Assembly: GCA_964411255.1 (NCBI GenBank)
Contig: CAYPKD010000004.1
Coordinates: 94,037 to 158,036, forward strand
DNA from: an uncultured Gammaproteobacteria bacterium
GTDB taxonomy: Bacteria; Patescibacteriota; Patescibacteriia; UBA11705; DATKZF01
Length of the DNA stretch: 64,000 bases
Direction: 5' to 3'
Of the stretch, positions 28,468 through 64,000 are shown piece after piece. The notes under the pieces are model-generated. The model worked only from the letters and a program-made list of their open reading frames with translations, was not told where the DNA came from and did not search any database. Position 1 is the first letter of the stretch; every line of letters starts with the position of its first letter. A program made the position numbers and the translations under genes.

Positions 28468-29496
28468 ATGTATAACACCATAGATACAATCAATACACTG
28501 ACTTGCAAAATAAATCATCCTGTTAAATTGATGGAACTTTGCGGCACGCATTCGCAAACCGTGGCCAAATACAATTTAAAAAGCTTGCTGCCGCAAAATA
28601 TTGAATTAATCTCCGGCCCTGGCTGCCCTATTTGCGTCACTGATCAAACTGATATTGATATTGTAATTAGCCTGGCAGAAAATAATATTCCAATTGCCAT
28701 TTATGGTGATGCTTTAACATTGCCAGGCACAAATTCCAGTCTTGAAAAGTTAAAGCAGCAAGGTAAAAAAATCCATATTGTTTATTCAACTCAAGATGCA
28801 TTAAATATTCAAAAACAAGAACCAGACTTGATTTTCTTTGGAATTGGATTTGAGACAACCACTCCAATGACAGCTTGGGCACTCAAGCAAGGTCTTAAGG
28901 TTTATTCAGCACATAAACTTTTTCCACCAGCAATGGCAGCGCTTTTACAAAATCCTGATATCCAAATCGACGGATTTATTGATCCGGGTCATGTTTCTGC
29001 AATAATTGGAGAAAAGCCTTATAAACAATTTAATGTTCCTCAAGTTATATCCGGATTTGAGCCTGAGGATGTATTAATTTCAATTCAAATGCTGCTGGAA
29101 ATGATTTTGAAAAATAAAAATGAACTTAAAAACCAATACACACGAGTTGTAAAGCCAGATGGAAACATTGAAGCCAAAAAAATCATTGAAGAAGTTTTTG
29201 AAATTTCAGATGCCAAATGGCGCGGACTTGGCAACATTCCAAACTCCGGATTAAAAATAAAAACTAAATTTCAAAATCAGGATGCGGAATATATTCATAA
29301 AGATTTAATTGAAAAAATAAAACAAAACATTGAACCAAAACAAAATAAATGCATTTGTGGTAAAATACTGCAAGGATTGGCAAAACCTGGTGATTGCCCT
29401 CTATTTGCCAAGTCTTGCACACCGGAAAATCCTCAGGGAGCGTGCATGGTTTCAGTTGAAGGGAATTGCCAGATTGAGTACAGGTTTAATAACTAA
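28468..29496 (+). CDS. hypD: hydrogenase maturation factor HypD
   Basis: 'CGTHSQ', 'GPGCPICV', 'FFGIGFETTTP', 'PGHVSAIIG', and C-terminal 'CICG...CPLF...C...GACM' Fe-S cysteine motifs typical of HypD. Confidence 0.85.
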   Translation: MYNTIDTINTLTCKINHPVKLMELCGTHSQTVAKYNLKSLLPQNIELISGPGCPICVTDQTDIDIVISLAENNIPIAIYGDALTLPGTNSSLEKLKQQGKKIHIVYSTQDALNIQKQEPDLIFFGIGFETTTPMTAWALKQGLKVYSAHKLFPPAMAALLQNPDIQIDGFIDPGHVSAIIGEKPYKQFNVPQVISGFEPEDVLISIQMLLEMILKNKNELKNQYTRVVKPDGNIEAKKIIEEVFEISDAKWRGLGNIPNSGLKIKTKFQNQDAEYIHKDLIEKIKQNIEPKQNKCICGKILQGLAKPGDCPLFAKSCTPENPQGACMVSVEGNCQIEYRFNN

Positions 29497-35143: not shown

Positions 35144-36337
35144 CTAGAACTTTTCATTTCTCAAGCAATACATCATCTGCCCCAAACTCAATCCATAATC
35201 TCCCCTCTCAATATTTTTAGACATAATTACTCCATTGTTTTTCGCAACTTGACTCATAATCTTATTATTTGCCATTCCTCCTCCAAAATATATTGGTAAA
35301 TTTGAATCAGCTTTTTTCGCAATATTAATTAGCCCTTCAATAACATATTTTTGAACAGTAGCTGCCAGTCTTCCCTTATCCTTATCCAAATTATCCAAAA
35401 GCCATTCAAAAAGATAAGAGATATTTAACTCATATTGTTTTTCAATTTCTCTGTTTCTCTGTTTCTCTGTCTTTGTGTTTTTCTGCTCTTCTGTTTCTCT
35501 GTCTTTGTGTTTTTCTGTTATCCTAGGCTCTAAATCAAACGGATCTGCTGATTTCTTCTCCAGTAAATCAACGGGCTCATGTTTATAATTTCTTTCATTT
35601 TTACAAAGGCCAAGTAAAACTGAGGCTGCATCCAGTATTCTTCCAGTACTACTAGTTTCTACTGAATTAAATTTTTGTTCGTACATTTTTACAAATAAAT
35701 CAAACTCCTCCTTTTTAAAAAACTTTTCAAAAATCGACCGTATTTCAGCCGGCTTTTTTATTTTTAAAAGTATTGAAAGAAGCATTCTGGCCGGCTCTTT
35801 TATTGATAAATCCGCACCGCATAATAATTGATTTTCCAAATGCCCAATTCTTTTTATTTTATCTTTGCTTTTTTCTTTTTGATTTTGACTGATAAGGAAC
35901 ACTTCACCTCCCCAAATCTTTCCATCAAGACCATACCCTGTACCGTCTGCTGCTATACCTATAAACTTGGAGAAGCTGAGTGTGGGTATAGAAGCTAGAA
36001 TAGTGTAATCAAATAATACTGAATAAACATGCGCAATGTGATGTTGTACTTTTTCAAGCTTTGCGTCATATTTATCAGCTAATTCTTCTCCCAATTTTGA
36101 GGTTTTATATTCTGGATGCAGATCAACACATATTATATCTGGAACAAAACTATTTTTTTCCAAAAATTCAAATATAATCTTTTTATAATTTTCAAAATTA
36201 TTTTCTTCAATCAAATCACCTAGATCTTCTTGGTAATAAATCTTTCCTTTATTATAAACACAAAAATTCCCAGCTGACTCAGGTCCTAAGGCTAGGATTT
36301 TTTGATTCTTATTAATCGTCACGTCAAACCCTTTCAT
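35144..36337 (-). CDS. HypF-like carbamoyltransferase, Kae1/TsaD-like domain only (no acylphosphatase, Zn-finger or YrdC domains)
   Basis: 'VQHHIAHVYSV' (the HHxAH metal motif of the HypF Kae1-like domain), 'IGIAADGTGYG', 'GGGMANNKIM...GDYGLSLGQMMY'. Contains a charged low-complexity insert encoded by a tandem DNA repeat. Confidence 0.6.
   Translation of the reverse strand: MKGFDVTINKNQKILALGPESAGNFCVYNKGKIYYQEDLGDLIEENNFENYKKIIFEFLEKNSFVPDIICVDLHPEYKTSKLGEELADKYDAKLEKVQHHIAHVYSVLFDYTILASIPTLSFSKFIGIAADGTGYGLDGKIWGGEVFLISQNQKEKSKDKIKRIGHLENQLLCGADLSIKEPARMLLSILLKIKKPAEIRSIFEKFFKKEEFDLFVKMYEQKFNSVETSSTGRILDAASVLLGLCKNERNYKHEPVDLLEKKSADPFDLEPRITEKHKDRETEEQKNTKTEKQRNREIEKQYELNISYLFEWLLDNLDKDKGRLAATVQKYVIEGLINIAKKADSNLPIYFGGGMANNKIMSQVAKNNGVIMSKNIERGDYGLSLGQMMYCLRNEKF
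35450..35520. repeat. imperfect ~35-bp tandem repeat x2 inside the hypF-like CDS
   Basis: ttctctgtttctctgtctttgtgtttttctg repeated; encodes 'TEKHKDRETEEQKNTKTEKQRNRE'. Confidence 0.7.
35972..36003. repeat. solo copy of the cassette-2 inverted-repeat motif inside the hypF-like CDS
   Basis: gaagctgagtgtgggtatagaagctagaata versus 29511..29541 gaagctgggtgtaggtttagaagctagaata (28 of 31 identical). Confidence 0.6.
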
Positions 36338-44798: not shown

Positions 44799-44943
44799 CT
44801 GAAAATAAAGTATAACAGATTGTATAAATTGTCAAATTTTGCTTAATCTATAAAACCATCTGTTTTATTTCTATATTTTTCAGTCTCTTATGAATATCGG
44901 GACAAAATCTTTTTATTCAGAACATCTTTTCATGTATAGCAAC

Positions 44944-45101
44944 GGGGGTCTGGGGGGCTGATTGCCCCTGGCGCGATAACAGAACTCAATCGAAGCTTCG
45001 CATTTGAAGACCCCCAGCGGTTTTTGGTTACTTTTTGACGCCAAAAAGTAACTTGGCGCAAGCCAACATTGCAAAGGGCAAAGCAGGCTTTGCCTGTATA
45101 G
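44944..45101. repeat. structured dispersed repeat, copy B
   Basis: Same core as copy A; variable loop differs; terminal hairpin caggc-ttt-gcctg; flanked by 'gtatag' on both sides. Confidence 0.8.
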
Positions 45102-56930: not shown

Positions 56931-57470
56931 ATGGGCACAGTCACAGCCATGATTCATGTGGGTCGAACCCATCAAAACCATTTAGGCATATTGCCAGCCG
57001 ATTGGCTATATTTACATGAAAACAGCCGCCCGAGCTGGCATTTACAGCCATTAAGTATAATGGGCAGAAATAGACAACATATTGATATCACCTGGGTTCC
57101 TACTCTAAAACATATGCTTGATGATGCAATGCTGATGATTGCAATTTTTATACTTAAAGATGAAGCAATTATTAAAAAAGCAAAACAATGCTTTAAAAAA
57201 GATGACCTTTCGTTTATTGAACTAAACAGAGATATTAATAAACAAGATTTGTATCAACTTCGCAGAAAATGCAGAGCGTTGAGAAACAGATATAAGATTG
57301 TTGTTACACTCCTTGGCAAATCTTCTTTATCAAGGCATTGCCCTGTACTTGAAAAGTATAAAATGGATGTTGAAGTTTGTATTCCTGCCTTTGATAGACA
57401 TTTTTCTCATTGGGAAAAGAAAACAGTCACTTCAGGTTCTCTGGATATTCAAAGAACGGAGGCTCCATGA
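56931..57470 (+). CDS. hypothetical protein
   Basis: Start moved to the ATG after RBS aaggaggg; TTGACA-17-TATTAT promoter at 56868-56896; stop overlaps the next start (ATGA). Confidence 0.45.
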   Translation: MGTVTAMIHVGRTHQNHLGILPADWLYLHENSRPSWHLQPLSIMGRNRQHIDITWVPTLKHMLDDAMLMIAIFILKDEAIIKKAKQCFKKDDLSFIELNRDINKQDLYQLRRKCRALRNRYKIVVTLLGKSSLSRHCPVLEKYKMDVEVCIPAFDRHFSHWEKKTVTSGSLDIQRTEAP

Positions 57471-58006
57471 AAATCGTACTTGGCTCAAAAAGCAAAATAA
57501 AAGCTGAGGCTCTCAGACAAGCCCTGACTGAAGTACTGGAATTGATTGACGAAAAGTCGAACATTGAACTGGAGCTTACAGAAGTGAAATCCTGGGTGAG
57601 ACCTCAGCCAATGAAGGCCGATGAAGCTCTCAGGGGCGCAATGGAAAGAGCCGGACGCTCTCTGCGGGCTTGCCCAGAAGCTGAACTGGCAATAGGGATT
57701 GAAAATGGCGTGCACAGATTTTCTGACATGATTAATGAATATTGGATCGATTTTGCTTTTGTGGTTGCCCTTACTCCGCTTATGATAAAATATGTCAGCA
57801 CAAGCTGTGGAATTCAGTTTCCGACAAATATTGTATTTTTATCCGAATCCAAACAAGCCCAGGATACTTGCGGACAAATTATGGAAAAATTAAAGATGGT
57901 CAAGGATGGCAAAGATCCTCATTCATCTTTGACTTTTGGCGCATTGTCCAGAAAAGAATCGCTTATTCAGCCACTCAAGGTGGTTTTAATACAAGCATTA
58001 TCATAA
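57467..58006 (+). CDS. YjjX-like inosine/xanthosine triphosphatase (NTPase_I-T / DUF84), putative
   Basis: 'KIVLGSKSKIKAEALRQAL' and 'ELAIGIENGV' resemble YjjX 'VVCATTNPAKIQAILQAF' and 'FWVAIEAGI'; RBS ggagg; track ORF start trimmed. Confidence 0.45.
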   Translation: MKIVLGSKSKIKAEALRQALTEVLELIDEKSNIELELTEVKSWVRPQPMKADEALRGAMERAGRSLRACPEAELAIGIENGVHRFSDMINEYWIDFAFVVALTPLMIKYVSTSCGIQFPTNIVFLSESKQAQDTCGQIMEKLKMVKDGKDPHSSLTFGALSRKESLIQPLKVVLIQALS

Positions 58007-58008
58007 AA

Positions 58009-58034
58009 CCCGCTTTCAGAAAGCGAGTTTTTTA
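58009..58034 (+). terminator. rho-independent terminator
   Basis: cgctttc-agaa-agcg+TTTTTT. Confidence 0.5.
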
Positions 58035-58062
58035 TTTCAGATCAATTATTATATTCCCTATC

Positions 58063-58085
58063 GTGGGGTCTGGGGTTGCCATTCA
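58063..58085. repeat. 5' fragment of an E-type copy of the structured repeat
   Basis: cgtggggtctggggttgcc matches the 5' end of copy E; no 3' partner strand present. Confidence 0.5.
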
Positions 58086-58146
58086 ATTATATAAATAAAA
58101 ATTCACACATTGATGAAGATCAGAACATTTTTTCATTTATAGCATC

Positions 58147-58305
58147 GGGGGTCTGGGGGGCTGATTGCCCCCGGAGCGATCCTCAAACTTAATCGTTGCT
58201 TCGCATTTGAAGCCGCTCAGCACTTTTTGGTTACTTTTTGGTGCCAAAAAGTAACTTGGCGCAAGCCAACATTGCAAAACCCATAGCAGGCTCCAGGCCT
58301 GTTTT
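58147..58305. repeat. structured dispersed repeat, copy D
   Basis: Core as copies A/B; long-range stem partly degraded (agccgctcagc); ends caggc-tccag-gcctg+TTTT as in copy C. Confidence 0.8.
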
Positions 58306-58377
58306 GAAAAAGATTAAATTTATTTTTTCCTAAATAAAAAACCCTGATACTATAGGGATATAAAACTCGTAATTCAA

Positions 58378-59349
58378 TCATTTATTCCAAAGATTTATAT
58401 AAGACTGAAATTTTTTAGCTATCAAATCCTGAGCTTTTGATTTTGTAATCTTTTTTTCTTTATATTTTATCAAAGCATCTAAAAATATTGTCCGGCCAAT
58501 AGCAAATCCAATAATCTGATCAAACTTTTTGGCTGCCAAAAGCCATTGCTTAACTTTTTTATCATCCTCTCCCCTGCCTAAAAATATTATTGACGAGTTC
58601 TTTGGAATTACTTTTAAAATTCTCTTCCAGCATTTATTAGAAAATCCTTCCATTTTCCAAATATCAACTTTTACTTTTTGTTTTATTTCTTTAATTGCCG
58701 CAACTGTTCTGATCAATCGTAAAGTCTTTTCATAATTTCTTTCAGTATTTACCAGTTTTAAATCTTTGTCAGTTGCTGGAACTAAAAGCTCAATTAATAA
58801 TTTATAATTATTTTTTTTGCAAAAATCACTTAAACGCTTTAATTTTTTAAGCTGCACTTTATTTATTTTCTTATTTATAGGATTATACCGAACCAATGCT
58901 TTAGCATAATCTGGCTTAAATTTATTGATATGCCTGCCAAAAGCACTTCCATATTCAAAACCATATTGTTTTTGCCCGCTTTTCTCAGTGGTCAAACAAA
59001 TCTGAATTTTTCGCTTTTTTGCATCTTTTAATACTTTCGCACCAAATTCTTCATCAACGAGAATGGCCAAATCGTCTTTTTTTTCATACTTTTTATACAC
59101 CTTTAAAAATGCCTGATAAATCAATTCTTTCAGTTTTTCTAGCTCTTTATGCTGCTTTTTTGTTATTTTTTTAGTACCAATTAAGTGCTTTTTAAATGAG
59201 CCCCGATGGTCAAAAGGCATGATTATAAGCTGTTTTTTCATATTATTCGTATTATACCATATTTCATTCGATTTTTGCCTATTGACAAAATTCTCATTAT
59301 TAGCTAGTATGTAAATTATTAAATATCCATGTTGATTGCAGTAAAGCAC
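58378..59349 (-). CDS. hypothetical protein, possibly a DUF2090 / class I aldolase-like TIM-barrel
   Basis: N-terminal 'IIMPFDHRGSF' and C-terminal 'IIGFAIGRTIF' resemble the IolC C-terminal/DUF2090 family; assignment uncertain. Confidence 0.35.
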   Translation of the reverse strand: MLYCNQHGYLIIYILANNENFVNRQKSNEIWYNTNNMKKQLIIMPFDHRGSFKKHLIGTKKITKKQHKELEKLKELIYQAFLKVYKKYEKKDDLAILVDEEFGAKVLKDAKKRKIQICLTTEKSGQKQYGFEYGSAFGRHINKFKPDYAKALVRYNPINKKINKVQLKKLKRLSDFCKKNNYKLLIELLVPATDKDLKLVNTERNYEKTLRLIRTVAAIKEIKQKVKVDIWKMEGFSNKCWKRILKVIPKNSSIIFLGRGEDDKKVKQWLLAAKKFDQIIGFAIGRTIFLDALIKYKEKKITKSKAQDLIAKKFQSYINLWNK

Positions 59350-59366
59350 TGATTGGGGGATACTTA

Positions 59367-59579
59367 ATGCAAAAAGGTAGTAAGTTCAAGTGGAAACCTC
59401 TCTCAAAATTGCCGCAAGGAACAGCAGAAAATCTCAGGATTAGAGAAGAAGACCATGGAAAAGGGCCATTTATTGTAAAGGAAATCGAGCCATTTCTTGA
59501 AAATAATCGTTTAATAATATTTAGAAATGAACGTGGTCATGATGCAGTTGTAAATGAAAATTTATTGATTGAGGTGTAA
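59367..59579 (+). CDS. small hypothetical protein
   Basis: 70 aa ORF; terminator-like hairpin cctgactt-cat-aagtcagg+TTTTTT follows. Confidence 0.35.
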   Translation: MQKGSKFKWKPLSKLPQGTAENLRIREEDHGKGPFIVKEIEPFLENNRLIIFRNERGHDAVVNENLLIEV

Positions 59580-59622
59580 ATAAATACCTGACTTCATAAG
59601 TCAGGATTTTTTAATATTATTA

Positions 59623-60381
59623 TTACTCTATTGAAATTGAAAAAATTGCTTGTGTATATCCAGTATCTTTTTCCTTATCTATTCCAAATGAAATCTTTTT
59701 CCCAGAGTCAAAATTTATATCTGTTTTAATCAAGCCTCTTTTTGCACTTAATTCGGTTGAAAATGATTTAATAATACCAAGTGTCTCTTTTTCTAAAATA
59801 TCATCTGGCTCAATGTTTGATATAATATACCAATTAAATTCTTCATGTTGTTCGGTGATACGATGTATTGAACCGACTAATAATCCTTTAATTCCTTCTA
59901 CTTCCAATATAATTTCCCAAGATGCTGGCAACCATGGTCTTCCTTTCTTGTCTTTCTTTCTTAATTCCTTTAGATCAAACTCTATAGCTTCTAAATAGTC
60001 TTTATTTAAACTTAATAATAACTCATAGGTAGCTTCATCACTTAACTTCACTTCTGAAACATTTTTTTTACGTATGCGTTCCTGATTAGTATCCTCCAGA
60101 AGATCAATTGGCTCTGTATTGAAGGCTGGTTCTGCACTTTCTTGTCTTTTTCTTTTCTTTTCAATTTTATCCTTTATCTTCATTAACTCATTCTTATAAT
60201 CCGTATAAAAATCCAAAGCCTCTTTCAACTTCCCAGCTTTTTCAGCAGCCACAGCCTTATCCATGATCTTTCCCAGAAATTCCTTTTCTTCATCAGTTAA
60301 AGGCACACGCTTAACCTCACTCCGCCGCGGGCGGGCCATTTGGAGTTGGGATTCGAGAGATTGGGGTTTTTCTGACTTCAT
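59623..60381 (-). CDS. paralog-family protein 1 (shared N-terminal helical domain, unique C-terminus)
   Basis: N-terminus 'PQSLESQLQMARPRRSEVKRVPLTDEEKEFLGKIMDKAVAAEKAGKLKEALDFYTDYKNEL' shared with three neighbours. Confidence 0.55.
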   Translation of the reverse strand: MKSEKPQSLESQLQMARPRRSEVKRVPLTDEEKEFLGKIMDKAVAAEKAGKLKEALDFYTDYKNELMKIKDKIEKKRKRQESAEPAFNTEPIDLLEDTNQERIRKKNVSEVKLSDEATYELLLSLNKDYLEAIEFDLKELRKKDKKGRPWLPASWEIILEVEGIKGLLVGSIHRITEQHEEFNWYIISNIEPDDILEKETLGIIKSFSTELSAKRGLIKTDINFDSGKKISFGIDKEKDTGYTQAIFSISIE

Positions 60382-60393
60382 ATCTTTTACATG

Positions 60394-61086
60394 CTATTTC
60401 ATTATATCACCTTTTATTTTTCCCTCTTCTTTCAGTCTTTCTGCTTTTTCAACTAATTTTTTAGTACAGCCCTCAATTATAAGATCGTTGCCAACATATA
60501 AATCATCTGGCAAATCTTTAATTGATGAATTATTTAATATTAGATCACCATCAATGCGAGTATTCTCAGGTAAAGAATCCATTATTGCTCCGTTCATATT
60601 AAGTGTACCAAAAACTCTAAGACCTGAACCTTTCCACTTTTTTACAACAGTATTTTTTAATATTAATGAATTACTAACTAACATGTTTGCAGGAAATTCA
60701 TCAATAATTTTCCCTGTTAAATTTAACATTTGTTTTGTTTCCAGCGCTGGAAGCTTTGATAAATCAAAAACAATCTCTACAAAATTTTCCTCTGTGAATC
60801 CAATAGCAGCAATCCATTCTTCTAGTTTTTCCCTTGTCCAAACAATTTCTTTCTCTTTTTCCTTTATCTTTAACAACTCATTCTTATACTCAGTATAAAA
60901 CCCTAAAGCCTCAGCCAATTCCCCAGCTTTTTCCGCAGCCACAGCCTTATCCATAATCTTTCCTAAAAATTCCTTTTCTTCAGCAGTCAGCGGCACACGC
61001 TTAACATCACTCCGCCGCGGGCGGGCCATTTGAAGTTGGGATTCGAGAGATTGAGGTTGTTCTTTTTGCATAGAGCTATTAGACAT
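60394..61086 (-). CDS. paralog-family protein 2 (shared N-terminal domain; C-terminus related to paralog 3)
   Basis: 'QPQSLESQLQMARPRRSDVKRVPLTAEEKEFLGKIMDKAVAAEKAGELAEAL'; C-terminal '...GCTKKLVEKAERLKEEGKIKG' similar to paralog 3; the true start may be the internal Met 15 codons downstream. Confidence 0.55.
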   Translation of the reverse strand: MSNSSMQKEQPQSLESQLQMARPRRSDVKRVPLTAEEKEFLGKIMDKAVAAEKAGELAEALGFYTEYKNELLKIKEKEKEIVWTREKLEEWIAAIGFTEENFVEIVFDLSKLPALETKQMLNLTGKIIDEFPANMLVSNSLILKNTVVKKWKGSGLRVFGTLNMNGAIMDSLPENTRIDGDLILNNSSIKDLPDDLYVGNDLIIEGCTKKLVEKAERLKEEGKIKGDIMK

Positions 61087-61109
61087 TAATCATTTGTAAT
61101 TGAGAATAA

Positions 61110-61823
61110 CTATGAAGGAATGATTACTTTTCCCTTAATTTTTCCTTCTTTTGCTAACTTTTGCGCTTTTTCTTTCACTTTATCAGAACAACCACCAACC
61201 CAAAAATTATGCCCGACATATATATTATCTGGCAAATTTTCAATAGCTGACCTTGCTATGTCAAAACTCCCTGTAACATGCGTATTTTCAGGTATGTGAG
61301 ATAGTTTTGCATTTTTCATATCACATGAACCTTTTACAGTTAATCCCGGGCCATTCCATTTTTTAACTTCCGCATCATTTAATAAAAGATGTCCATTAAC
61401 AGTTAAATTTGGCGGGAATTCGTCAATTACTTTACCTCTCAAACGCAGATAGCCTATTGTTTCTAATCGAGGGAATTTGGTTAAATCAAAAGTCTGTGCT
61501 GTATATTCTGAAATTGAAAAATCAGGAAATTCATAAACCTTTTCCACCCACTCTTCAAGCCTACCTAGAGTCCATATTTTTTTTTCATCCTCTTTTATTT
61601 TTTTATCCTTCTCTTCTTTAATCTTTAACAATTCATTTTTATAGTCAGTATATAAATCTAATGCTTCTTGCAGCTTCCCTGCCTTTTCCGCAGCCACTGC
61701 CTTATCCATAATATTTCCCAGAAATTCCTTTTCTTCATCAGTTAAAGGCACACGCTTAATCTCAGCACGTTTTGGTTTGGCCATTTTTAATTGACTTTCT
61801 AGTGATTGAGGTTGTTCTGGCAT
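61110..61823 (-). CDS. paralog-family protein 3
   Basis: Start set to 'MPEQPQSLESQLKMAKPKRAEIKRVPLTDEEKEFLGNIMDKAVAAEKAGKLQEAL'; the track start 61844 would overlap the upstream gene. Confidence 0.55.
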   Translation of the reverse strand: MPEQPQSLESQLKMAKPKRAEIKRVPLTDEEKEFLGNIMDKAVAAEKAGKLQEALDLYTDYKNELLKIKEEKDKKIKEDEKKIWTLGRLEEWVEKVYEFPDFSISEYTAQTFDLTKFPRLETIGYLRLRGKVIDEFPPNLTVNGHLLLNDAEVKKWNGPGLTVKGSCDMKNAKLSHIPENTHVTGSFDIARSAIENLPDNIYVGHNFWVGGCSDKVKEKAQKLAKEGKIKGKVIIPS

Positions 61824-61840
61824 ATATTTTAGGTATAAAA

Positions 61841-63205
61841 TCAAATCGTATTTATTCTCTTTACATAATTGTTTCCCTCCTTAGCAATTATATATATTTT
61901 ATCCTCATTTATTAAACCAAAATGATAAATTTCATCATAATCTTTACCAACTTTTTCTCCCTTTTCATTTACTACAAACCATTTGCCATCTTTTTTTGCT
62001 GCAAAAACAATTTTACCTCCAATATCTCGTGGATCTTTAACCTCATCATAATCGTGTCCAACTTTCTCCCCTGCTTCATTTACTACAAACTTTTTGCCAT
62101 CTTTTTTTGCTGAAAAAGTAATTTTACCTCCAATATCTTGTACCTGCCCAACATTATCATAATCTTGTCCAACTTTTTCTCCTTTTTCATTTATTGTAAA
62201 CCATTTACCATCTTTTTTTGCTGAAAAAGCAATTTTACCTCCAATATCTTGTGGATCTTTAACCTCATCATAATCTTGTCCGACTTTTTCTCCTTTTTCA
62301 TTCATAACAAACTGTTTATTATCCTTGATTGCTACAAAAGCAATTTTTCCTCCAATATCCTGTGGGTCCCAAATTTTATCATAATCTTGTTCAGTTTCTT
62401 CACCCTTTTCGTTTACTATAAACCATTTGCCATCTTTTTTTGCTCGAAAAACAATTTTACCTCCAATATCTTGTGCCTGCCCAATATGATCATAATCTTG
62501 TCCAACTTTTTCTCCTTTTTCATTTATTATAAACCATTTGCTACCTTTTTTTGCAGAAAAAGCAAGCTTACCACTAATATTTTTTAAAAAACTAATATGA
62601 TCATAATCTTGTCCAACTTTTTCTCCTTTTTCATTAACTACAAAGCATTTGTCATCTTTTTTTGCTCGAAAAACAATTTTTCCTCCAATTTCATGAGGAT
62701 ACCCAACATCATCATAATCGTGTCCAACTTTTTCTCCTTTTTCATTTATTATAAACTCTTTGTTGTTTTTTTCAGCATCAAAAGCAATCCTGCCTCCGAT
62801 ACTTTCAGGATAGCCAACATCATCATATTCATCTCCAACTTTTTCTCCCTTTTCATTTACTACAAACCATTTGCCATCTTTTTTTGCTGCAAAAGCAATT
62901 TTTCCTCCAATATCTTGAGGCTTTCGAACTCCATCATATTTCTTTATATCTATTAAAGCCACTATTAGTCCTTCATTATTTTCCTTTTCTTCTCTTTTTT
63001 TAATCTTTAATAATTCATTCTTATAATTCGAATAAAAATCCAAAGCCTCTTCTAATCTTCCAGCCTTTTCCGCAGCCACTGCCTTATCCATAATATTTCC
63101 CAGAAATTCCTTTTCTTCATCAGTTAAAGGCACACGCTTAATCTCAGCACGTTTTGGTTTGGCCATTTTTAATTGACTTTCTAGTGATTGAGGTTGTTCT
63201 GGCAT
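61841..63205 (-). CDS. paralog-family protein 4: shared N-terminal domain plus 11 tandem WG-like beta repeats
   Basis: N-terminus identical in 55 of 58 residues to paralog 3 (near-identical DNA); C-terminal '(I)GGKIxFxAKKDGKWFVVNEKGEKVGxDYDxV' repeated 11 times (WG/KWG-repeat-like). Confidence 0.6.
   Translation of the reverse strand: MPEQPQSLESQLKMAKPKRAEIKRVPLTDEEKEFLGNIMDKAVAAEKAGRLEEALDFYSNYKNELLKIKKREEKENNEGLIVALIDIKKYDGVRKPQDIGGKIAFAAKKDGKWFVVNEKGEKVGDEYDDVGYPESIGGRIAFDAEKNNKEFIINEKGEKVGHDYDDVGYPHEIGGKIVFRAKKDDKCFVVNEKGEKVGQDYDHISFLKNISGKLAFSAKKGSKWFIINEKGEKVGQDYDHIGQAQDIGGKIVFRAKKDGKWFIVNEKGEETEQDYDKIWDPQDIGGKIAFVAIKDNKQFVMNEKGEKVGQDYDEVKDPQDIGGKIAFSAKKDGKWFTINEKGEKVGQDYDNVGQVQDIGGKITFSAKKDGKKFVVNEAGEKVGHDYDEVKDPRDIGGKIVFAAKKDGKWFVVNEKGEKVGKDYDEIYHFGLINEDKIYIIAKEGNNYVKRINTI
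61960..62930. repeat. ~99-bp coding tandem repeat x11 (WG-like repeats)
   Basis: Periodic 'ttttacctccaatatc...tttttctcc...' units; generates the spurious F-rich antisense ORFs 61922..62956. Confidence 0.8.
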
Positions 63206-63260
63206 ATATTTTTAAAAAGGAAGGAAATATTTCATTCCTCCTTTTATATATATCATTAAA

Positions 63261-63962
63261 TTAGTCGTCTTTATTCATTCCCTTATGCTTTCCCGGCTCA
63301 TTTCCATGCTCAATTCCCTTGTGCTTTCCAGGATGGCCATTATCATCTCCGTCTTCAGGATCACCCTTTCCTCCTTTTGGTTTTCCATTACCACCTTTTG
63401 GTTTGCTTCCACCTACTCCGCCTTTTGGCTTGCCTTTTCCTCCGCCTTTTCCACCAGCCGGATCTCCAATTCCGCCAATACCTCCTTTAGGTTTTCCTTT
63501 TCCAAGCAGTCCCCATCCAGTAACAGCAGCTAGCATGCATACAAGCACTAATAAAAATTTTAATATTTGATCGCGCCATTCCCAAAGCATATCCCAAAAT
63601 CCTTGTTCATCTTCATTAAATTCGCAGCAATCATCATCTGATGGCCAAATAAACTGGTCATTTGAAGCAACTTCATCATCTGATGCGAAAACATCATCGC
63701 TGGCAAAAAGTGAATCATCTGAAGCAAATAAATCGTCATTGTCATCATCATCATCTCCCTCATTATTGTCATCGCCTTCATCACCATCAACATCTTCTTC
63801 TGGTTCAGGTTCTGGCTCTGGTTCATGTTCTTCTTCGCATTTATCAGAATCTAAAGGATAAAAATCATCTTTATCACTGCAAGTATCATCATCAGTATCA
63901 TAATCTTTTGGATCTGTTCCAATCTCATCTTCATCCCAGTTAAACAAACCATCATTATCCAT
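63261..63962 (-). CDS. low-complexity protein: D/E-rich N-terminal half, TM helix, G/K/P-rich tail; N-terminus may extend past the window edge
   Basis: 'DDEVASNDQF', TM 'FLLVLVCMLAAVTGWGLLG', 'GKGGGKGKPKGGVGGSKPKGGNGKPKGGKG'. Confidence 0.4.
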   Translation of the reverse strand: MDNDGLFNWDEDEIGTDPKDYDTDDDTCSDKDDFYPLDSDKCEEEHEPEPEPEPEEDVDGDEGDDNNEGDDDDDNDDLFASDDSLFASDDVFASDDEVASNDQFIWPSDDDCCEFNEDEQGFWDMLWEWRDQILKFLLVLVCMLAAVTGWGLLGKGKPKGGIGGIGDPAGGKGGGKGKPKGGVGGSKPKGGNGKPKGGKGDPEDGDDNGHPGKHKGIEHGNEPGKHKGMNKDD

Positions 63963-64000
63963 ATCTGTATCTAAATCGTCAATTATTCCATCGCCATCAG

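Follow-up and report, generated by a model that had tools for sequence, protein, structure and literature searches.

A restricted bacterial gene family with a constant N-terminal head and swappable C-terminal tails

Toward the end of a 64,000-nucleotide stretch of contig CAYPKD010000004.1 (hereafter the window), four consecutive minus-strand genes, W1–W4, encode proteins that begin with the same domain and then diverge. We find that they belong to a multigene family in which a constrained N-terminal module, the head, is joined to at least seven swappable C-terminal tails. The original prediction, made from the letters of this DNA, had described a shared N-terminal domain in the four genes and a constant module with swapped C-terminal partners; this layout is confirmed and proves far more extensive than four genes. 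Across the libraries searched the family is lineage-specific, restricted and previously undescribed, while its design principle is already known; no described family with such a constant head and variable tails was found in the literature. Our best reading, favoured at somewhat less than even confidence, is that its members serve as adaptors or receptors of modular build, probably located in the cytoplasm, which would all dock to a common partner.

A conserved head domain

The first ~75 residues of W1–W4 align without gaps at 72–85% identity, with 52 invariant columns, and beyond this point similarity collapses. Past the head the tails are unrelated, except that W2 and W3 have a tail in common. 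The core of the head follows the consensus M-x(2-5)-QSLESQL(K/Q)MARP(R/K)RxEVKRVPLTPEEKEFLGxIMDKAVAAEKAGxLxEALxxYTDYKNELLKIKE, which runs into a K/E-rich stretch. Three parts can be distinguished: a conserved basic peptide (SLESQLxMARPRRxEVKRVPLT), a helical hairpin resembling TPR and MIT domains, and a charged helix. Relatives of 33–44% identity retain LEMARPRRG...(E)LT.EE...A..AEKaG.L.kAI.LY...IK. For W3, AlphaFold run on an alignment of 30 sequences (pLDDT 91) predicts short helices at residues 8–15 and 19–23 and then a hairpin of helices 29–47 and 51–81, the second of which continues into the charged linker; the conserved N-terminal peptide is modelled with a moderate pLDDT of 68–79.

Pfam, NCBIfam, PADLOC and PHROGs contain no curated family for the head, and the searches brought up no solved relative. 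The single recurring database signal is MIT (PF04212), and it is always below threshold: 13.5–19.8 bits against W1–W4 (E 9e-4 to 0.08), 16.7–20.1 bits in further members and at best 25.9 bits (E 1.1e-5, protein P0045), compared with a Pfam gathering score of 30 bits that no family member tested reaches. In a profile search of the PDB, the best single-domain hits were the MIT domains of VPS4A, VPS4B, katanin, spastin, calpain-7 and Chs1 (E 0.005–2), and TPR and PPR repeats outscored them. The profile search and structure prediction suggested in the original prediction thus return a sub-threshold MIT signal and a helical hairpin for W3.

Were the head a true MIT domain, the tails would be targeted to an ESCRT-III-type polymer, either a PspA/Vipp1-like one of the cell itself or the ESCRT-III of a host. 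The recurrence of PF04212 and the identity of the best PDB hits speak for this proposal, as does a broader likeness to MIT proteins (VPS4, spastin, katanin, MITD1, calpain-7): the weak similarity recurs over MIT helices 1–2, and in both cases one N-terminal targeting domain is set on diverse C-terminal modules. Against it, the match hangs on a generic 'kaGxlxeAlxlY' turn common to the higher-scoring TPR/PPR repeats; the W3 model shows a two-helix hairpin with one long second helix and no third helix, apparently unlike the three-helix MIT bundle; and no ESCRT-III or PspA gene, the expected type of partner, was identified among the ~29 window ORFs scanned against Pfam. We consider a true MIT domain improbable, and we describe the head as a TPR/MIT-like hairpin without filing it as MIT.

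Two further features of the head-coding segment were examined. An RR pair is followed by no hydrophobic region, and a Tat signal was rejected on reading the sequence. Arginine codons in the heads are 79% CGN, compared with 33% in the other window genes, where AGA dominates. The MARPRR stretch is often written GCC CGC CCG CGG CGG, which contains a GC stem of 5 bp closed by a loop of 3 nt (CCGCC-CGC-GGCGG), as at 60322–60336 in W1 and 61012–61026 in W2; this tract is missing in W3 and W4 (AKPKR). The CGN bias could be an inherited codon choice kept by gene conversion, or a signal at the mRNA level.

Tails of at least seven kinds

Clustering of 73 non-redundant tails gave seven classes: LRR-like (39 members, among them W2 and W3), a strongly conserved tail of ~290 aa that we call class B (17, for example P0043), 37-aa beta-rich repeats (6, including W4), helical (5, for example P0050), P0049-like (3), W1-like (2) and a singleton (P0036). 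Remote members of the family add WD40 repeats (P0074, P0091), HEAT-like repeats (P0084) and other repeats (P0069, P0090). Overall, the tails look like repeat-type binding scaffolds for the most part.

The tails of W2 and W3 are predicted to be LRR-type solenoids, with 20–30-aa L-rich repeats modelled as a curved beta/loop solenoid; Foldseek E-values were all ≥0.03. The original prediction had seen here two related Cys-containing domains; their kinship stands, and their nature is reassigned. Compared with IpaH/SspH/YopM-type and Leptospira LRR proteins, to which they are 10–26% identical, they lack an NEL ubiquitin-ligase domain and a secretion signal, and Pfam detects no LRR in them. In W4, Tandem Repeats Finder reports a period of 111 nt, 8.9 copies and 77% matches over 61932–62917, and the protein register GGKIAFxAKKDGKWFVVNEKGEKVGxDYD gives nine full 37-aa repeats with a partial copy at each end. 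An 11-fold WG-like repeat propeller had been proposed for this tail; the repeat count does not agree, and no WG or propeller model of Pfam came up to its threshold. The few scattered hits were sub-threshold or spurious sums, and none was to a WG-repeat family at the cut-offs applied (E ≤1 for W4 and ≤0.01 for its homologs).

The ~170-aa tail of W1, thought at first to be unique, has orthologs (P0041; locus L020, 83% identity). Neither it nor class B has a match in Pfam, PDB, PADLOC or PHROGs. A plain class B HMM found no match to the tails of the remote clade; when profiles were aligned, the last ~118 columns of class B matched the tails of P0062, P0067 and P0068 (hhalign 81% probability, E 1.2e-5). 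Because the end of class B aligns with these remote tails, the combination of head and class B may be the oldest architecture. The class B sequence HGGKTK was considered as a Walker A motif and dropped, since it departs from the motif definition.

The tails also bear on whether this is a polymorphic toxin family of reversed polarity, with an N-terminal trafficking domain, C-terminal toxins and linked immunity genes, as the original prediction had suggested. Such a family would share the layout seen here, namely a constant N-terminus, variable C-termini and tandem arrays. Searches of W1–W4 and representatives of the other tail classes against Pfam, NCBIfam, PADLOC and PHROGs found no toxin or enzyme family. 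None of the tail classes showed a domain of the nuclease, deaminase, ADP-ribosyltransferase or peptidase type, and the majority of tails are non-enzymatic repeats. No LXG, PAAR, RHS, MIX or TPS domain was detected by Pfam in W1–W4, and neither a known trafficking domain, a signal peptide nor a secretion apparatus accompanies them. The small adjacent immunity-like genes that this idea calls for have no room, with family genes lying back to back across gaps of 12–38 nt (12 nt between W1 and W2, 23–38 nt between W2 and W3, 17 nt between W3 and W4). Finally, selection on the tails is purifying, not diversifying. Taken together, these results make a toxin family very improbable.

Selection on the head and its apparent exchange between paralogs

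Among 30 members of the LRR class, entropy per column averages 0.43 bits over the head and 2.16 bits over the LRR tail. Pairwise comparison of the window heads gives dS 0.43–1.46, dN 0.05–0.17 and omega 0.08–0.19; given these values, the four heads are old paralogs under purifying selection and no duplication artefact. The tails, with omega of 0.14–0.48, are under purifying selection too, so the family consists of working genes.

Between positions -7 and +141 relative to the start, a tract of 148 nt, the W3 and W4 genes are exactly identical; beyond this they diverge as other pairs do. The near-identity of their 5' ~200 nt claimed earlier therefore holds up to +141 and not past it. Head homology between the two ends near +215 (~61608 and ~62990), which agrees with the nucleotide identity drop foreseen at the domain junction. 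In ortholog pairs the head is the more diverged part, with dS of 0.84–0.88 or saturated, versus 0.20–0.30 in the tail. At the DNA level, the nearest head is that of the physical neighbour (W1–W2 0.88, W3–W4 0.91), not that of the tail's ortholog. These comparisons of head and tail use segments of ~60–75 codons and should be read as indications, not as formal tests. The identical tract, the excess of head over tail dS and the neighbour-nearest heads together argue for exchange of heads between paralogs. The history of the head appears decoupled from that of the tail, in a pattern consistent with gene conversion or recombination between neighbouring paralogs at junctions inside or just after the head.

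We compared the window with public assemblies of the same locus. The window matches the 364,661-bp JGI contig Ga0309772_1000015 (locus L001), which is without 29 nt (63040–63068) and 67 nt (61620–61686); both gaps directly follow the 148-nt tract, and they frameshift W4 and W3 into fragments of 51 + 373 aa and 53 + 145 aa. An independent ENA assembly is 100% identical to window positions 57394–61821, spanning W3, W2 and W1, and its contig stops at the tract. The exact W4 protein is absent from the public collection, and the 29 nt of W4 are present in the window version only. We take the window version as the coherent one because both frames are open and encode the family consensus. Public gene calls for the head family are partly truncated because assemblies break or lose bases at this repeat.

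That public assemblies disagree exactly here is what one would expect if the repeated heads came from a local assembly duplication or chimera; a recent local assembly duplication was part of a condition that the original prediction had named as fatal to its claim. The divergence of the heads at synonymous sites, the open frames of the window where the JGI version is frameshifted, the full agreement of the ENA contig over three of the four genes and the presence of homologous arrays on many other contigs (the family occurs at no fewer than 30 other loci) leave this explanation with a negligible probability.

Family size, distribution and host

A full-length word-based query returned 56 homologs. 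Among 1.84 billion representative proteins, a head profile retrieved just 41 at E ≤1e-3, 19 of them below 1e-30; a few of the weak hits are unrelated TPR-repeat proteins. Head-only queries (79 aa, or a 43-sequence alignment) were uninformative, returning a truncated 51-aa gene call or short proteins only. The head family was not found in GTDB r232 species representatives or in IMG/VR. In a metagenome scan we found 31 family loci, all from JGI samples Ga0180431-38, one of which is a hypersaline lake sediment metagenome (PMC8036902).

Family genes lie mostly in same-strand tandem arrays of two to five, and such arrays recur across loci. The 364,661-bp contig of the window holds two further five-gene arrays and a pair of class B genes, making at least 16 copies; the original prediction had recommended a genome-wide look for further members. 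The host genome is cellular and bacterial. Among the genes of the window and related loci are iPGM, HypD/HypF, MscS, MurF, PBP2, PheS and a lipoprotein, and GC content is ~33%. Since the window includes the maturation genes hypD (28468–29496) and hypF (35144–36337), the host probably has a [NiFe] hydrogenase.

Adaptors inside the cell or exported proteins

The repeat-scaffold tails and the apparent decoupling of head and tail histories favour the second interpretation offered in the original prediction, that of modular binding proteins diversifying by recombination. In the adaptor model that we prefer, the constant head would dock every family member onto one common partner, and the swappable tail would bind a different ligand in each paralog and so provide specificity. 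The available tails would comprise IpaH/YopM-like LRR solenoids, 37-aa beta-rich repeats, WD40 or HEAT-like repeats (remote members), the ~290-aa class B and several small domains. New combinations would arise through tandem duplication together with recombination or gene conversion within, or just after, the head-coding segment. The docking role of the head and the retention of the proteins within the cell are both inferred. No signal peptide or hydrophobic segment was found in W1–W4 (maximum 19-residue hydropathy ≤1.14; first 30 residues hydrophilic), as the original prediction had noted for the signal peptide.

Alternatively, these could be exported host-interaction proteins of a symbiotic or episymbiotic bacterium, with the head serving as a signal or chaperone-binding domain for non-classical secretion. 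Host molecules would then be the ligands of the LRR and beta-repeat tails, as they are for surface adhesins or for the effectors IpaH, SspH and YopM. This proposal fits the large number and fast diversification of the paralogs in an apparently small genome, and the nearby CxxC-x17-CxxC protein described below also speaks for it. The moderate pLDDT of the N-terminal peptide is as expected of a recognition motif. At one locus (L030, 4506–6479), a VirD4/TraD-like coupling ATPase with a C-terminal CxxC-x17-CxxC domain is encoded two genes upstream of a family pair with beta-rich repeats. Set against this are the lack of a signal peptide or membrane segment in W1–W4, the lack of a conserved secretion apparatus beside the arrays inspected (the VirD4-like neighbour was seen only once), Foldseek E-values no better than 0.03 and the absence of the family from GTDB species representatives. 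We regard export as unlikely, yet it is a serious rival to the adaptor model and the strongest one.

Comparison with known head-and-tail families places the adaptor model in context. F-box families (FBXL, FBXW, FBXO) and bacterial F-box/LRR effectors such as Ralstonia GALA offer an analogy only. No F-box hit was obtained with Pfam at E ≤1 in W1–W4, and unlike the F-box three-helix unit the head is a predicted hairpin with a preceding basic peptide and has no known Skp1-like partner. Type VII substrates of the LXG, PE/PPE and WXG100 groups resemble the family in their helix-turn-helix head of ~70–100 aa, variable tails and multigene arrays. They differ in that here no WXG, LXG or YxxxD/E motif was read in the sequences, no EssC/FtsK-type ATPase lies nearby, and there are no toxin tails or immunity genes.

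A recurring AAA+/VWA module as a candidate partner

Most arrays are flanked by ordinary housekeeping genes. One recurring neighbour is a three-gene module that encodes an AAA_5 (CobS-like) ATPase of 467 aa, a protein of ~650 aa with an HExxH motif and a CobT_C/von Willebrand factor A (VWA) domain, and a protein of ~150 aa. This module lies inside or beside family arrays at L022, L019, L024 and L041, and adjoins family genes of the remote 'MPKQFEK' clade at L037, L038 and L040. Between the two lineages the module proteins are 41–53% identical and the gene order differs. The CobT-like VWA protein carries a conserved HExxH, ICHEGSHRKISR, in its N-terminal half (L022 12962–14944, L037 1594–3525, L040 1853–3475), which points to a domain of metallopeptidase-like kind; the L040 copy of the gene is split into four pieces. 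MoxR-type AAA+/VWA pairs are chaperone/co-chaperone systems in which the VWA domain captures a client peptide. As a partner for the head, the CobS/CobT-like module is a doubtful candidate. More doubtful still, in our view, is a role of the head as a new kind of bacterial docking domain by which LRR, WD40, beta-repeat and HEAT-like modules would be connected to a CobS/CobT-like AAA+/VWA remodelling machine.

Several points weigh against the adaptor model and its link to this module. Linkage to the module is facultative, because neither the window nor any other visible array on the same contig has it; it is likewise missing from L036, L034, L005 and others, and the linkage is known from only two independent lineages. 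No head fused to the AAA+, VWA or ~150-aa protein was found, either in the module sequences or by a profile search of the whole library. The probable cytoplasmic location is argued solely from the lack of known export signals, and repeat scaffolds such as LRRs are also typical of secreted effectors and surface adhesins.

A close parallel is with MoxR-vWA 'ternary' conflict systems, which recruit variable proteins through small helical effector-associated domains (EADs) (Kaur, Burroughs, Iyer and Aravind, eLife 2020; PMC7159879). As in EAD systems, each genome has many variable proteins that begin with a small, non-enzymatic alpha-helical domain. Their genes often lie side by side, with further copies elsewhere in the genome. 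At some loci, though not at others, the neighbours encode a MoxR-type AAA+ ATPase, a VWA protein and a conserved third component. In contrast to those systems, fusion of the head to a core component, one of the traits that define an EAD, was not found; the partner domains here are mostly binding repeats rather than enzymes; and the ATPase/VWA pair is CobS/CobT-like, has an HExxH region and is absent from most arrays. The hosts here also appear to be small-genome uncultivated bacteria, not multicellular ones.

Features of the locus

The coordinates of the array are collected in Table 1. For W2, the ATG at 61071 is likely to be the start. Given that terminator-like hairpins flank the array upstream of W4 and downstream of W1, and that the spacers are short, W1–W4 plausibly form one transcription unit.

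Table 1. Features of the four-gene array (window coordinates).
Feature	Position	Strand	Remarks
W1: N-domain and ~170-aa tail of unassigned fold	59623–60381	-	252 aa; P0037
W2: N-domain and predicted LRR-type solenoid	60394–61086	-	230 aa; 225 aa from ATG 61071 (P0005)
W3: N-domain and predicted LRR-type solenoid	61110–61823	-	237 aa; P0002
W4: N-domain and 37-aa beta-rich tandem repeats	61841–63205	-	454 aa; from ORF, alignment and repeat register
N-domain coding segment of W4 (residues 1–72)	62990–63205	-	Alignment
N-domain coding segment of W3	61608–61823	-	Alignment
N-domain coding segment of W2	60853–61071	-	Alignment
N-domain coding segment of W1	60166–60381	-	Alignment
Predicted LRR-type solenoid and C-terminal capping helix of W3 (residues ~112–237)	61110–61490	-	
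Tandem array of 111-nt (37-aa) units inside W4	61932–62917	-	Tandem Repeats Finder
148-nt tract, W4 copy; putative gene-conversion tract	63065–63212	-	Identical to 61683–61830
148-nt tract, W3 copy	61683–61830	-	Identical to 63065–63212; public assemblies are broken or short of bases where it ends
Terminator-like hairpin following the upstream gene and immediately preceding W4	63220–63241	-	Pattern match only
Two-way terminator-like hairpin after W1	59587–59605	.	Pattern match only

Convergent with W1 is a 70-aa ORF at 59367–59579 on the plus strand, which is gene-called in public assemblies and has no family match; a copy of 81% identity stands beside the W1 ortholog of L020, and none was seen next to the remaining arrays. 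The gene upstream of the array (63261–64000) runs past the end of the window, and its full 434 aa are encoded at L001 8641–9945. In its protein a signal peptide, a single transmembrane helix and long, acidic repeats rich in D (DTDGD / DxDxDG-like) are combined with a tail rich in Gly and Lys, GKGGGKGKPKGG; neither the window-encoded part (Pfam) nor the full length (NCBIfam) gave a hit. About 2 kb past the window end, a standalone protein contains two CxxC-x17-CxxC domains (TIGR04272; L001 7296–7865). Proteins with this domain are common in candidate phyla radiation bacteria.

The AT-rich genome also contains a dispersed, GC-rich intergenic repeat of ~165 nt (58120–58292, 44917–45089 and 2196–2347; also L001 1052–1187). 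Three copies have a mean column identity of 84%, and the repeat includes the perfect palindrome AGTTACTTTTTGG/CCAAAAAGTAACT. Folded as RNA it forms several hairpins (-64 kcal/mol, z = -3.1), with a terminal hairpin followed by UUUU, and a search of Rfam gave nothing even at E ≤1. Both a small RNA gene and a REP/MITE-like element are conceivable.

Implications

The family occupies a notable share of a small genome, with at least 16 genes in 365 kb, and it illustrates that a constant-N/variable-C layout is by itself no indicator of toxins. If the head is a docking module, it would provide a handle for finding the common partner of all these proteins, and the partial linkage to the CobS/CobT-like AAA+/VWA module supplies a concrete, testable hypothesis. 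Were docking into such an AAA+/VWA machine true, the family would amount to a prokaryotic substrate-receptor system, organised like the eukaryotic F-box/SCF or MIT/ESCRT adaptors, with a repertoire renewed by exchange of head segments among tandem paralogs. A docking head would also show how an uncultivated bacterium of hypersaline sediment builds and renews a recognition repertoire of LRR, WD40 and beta-repeat modules.

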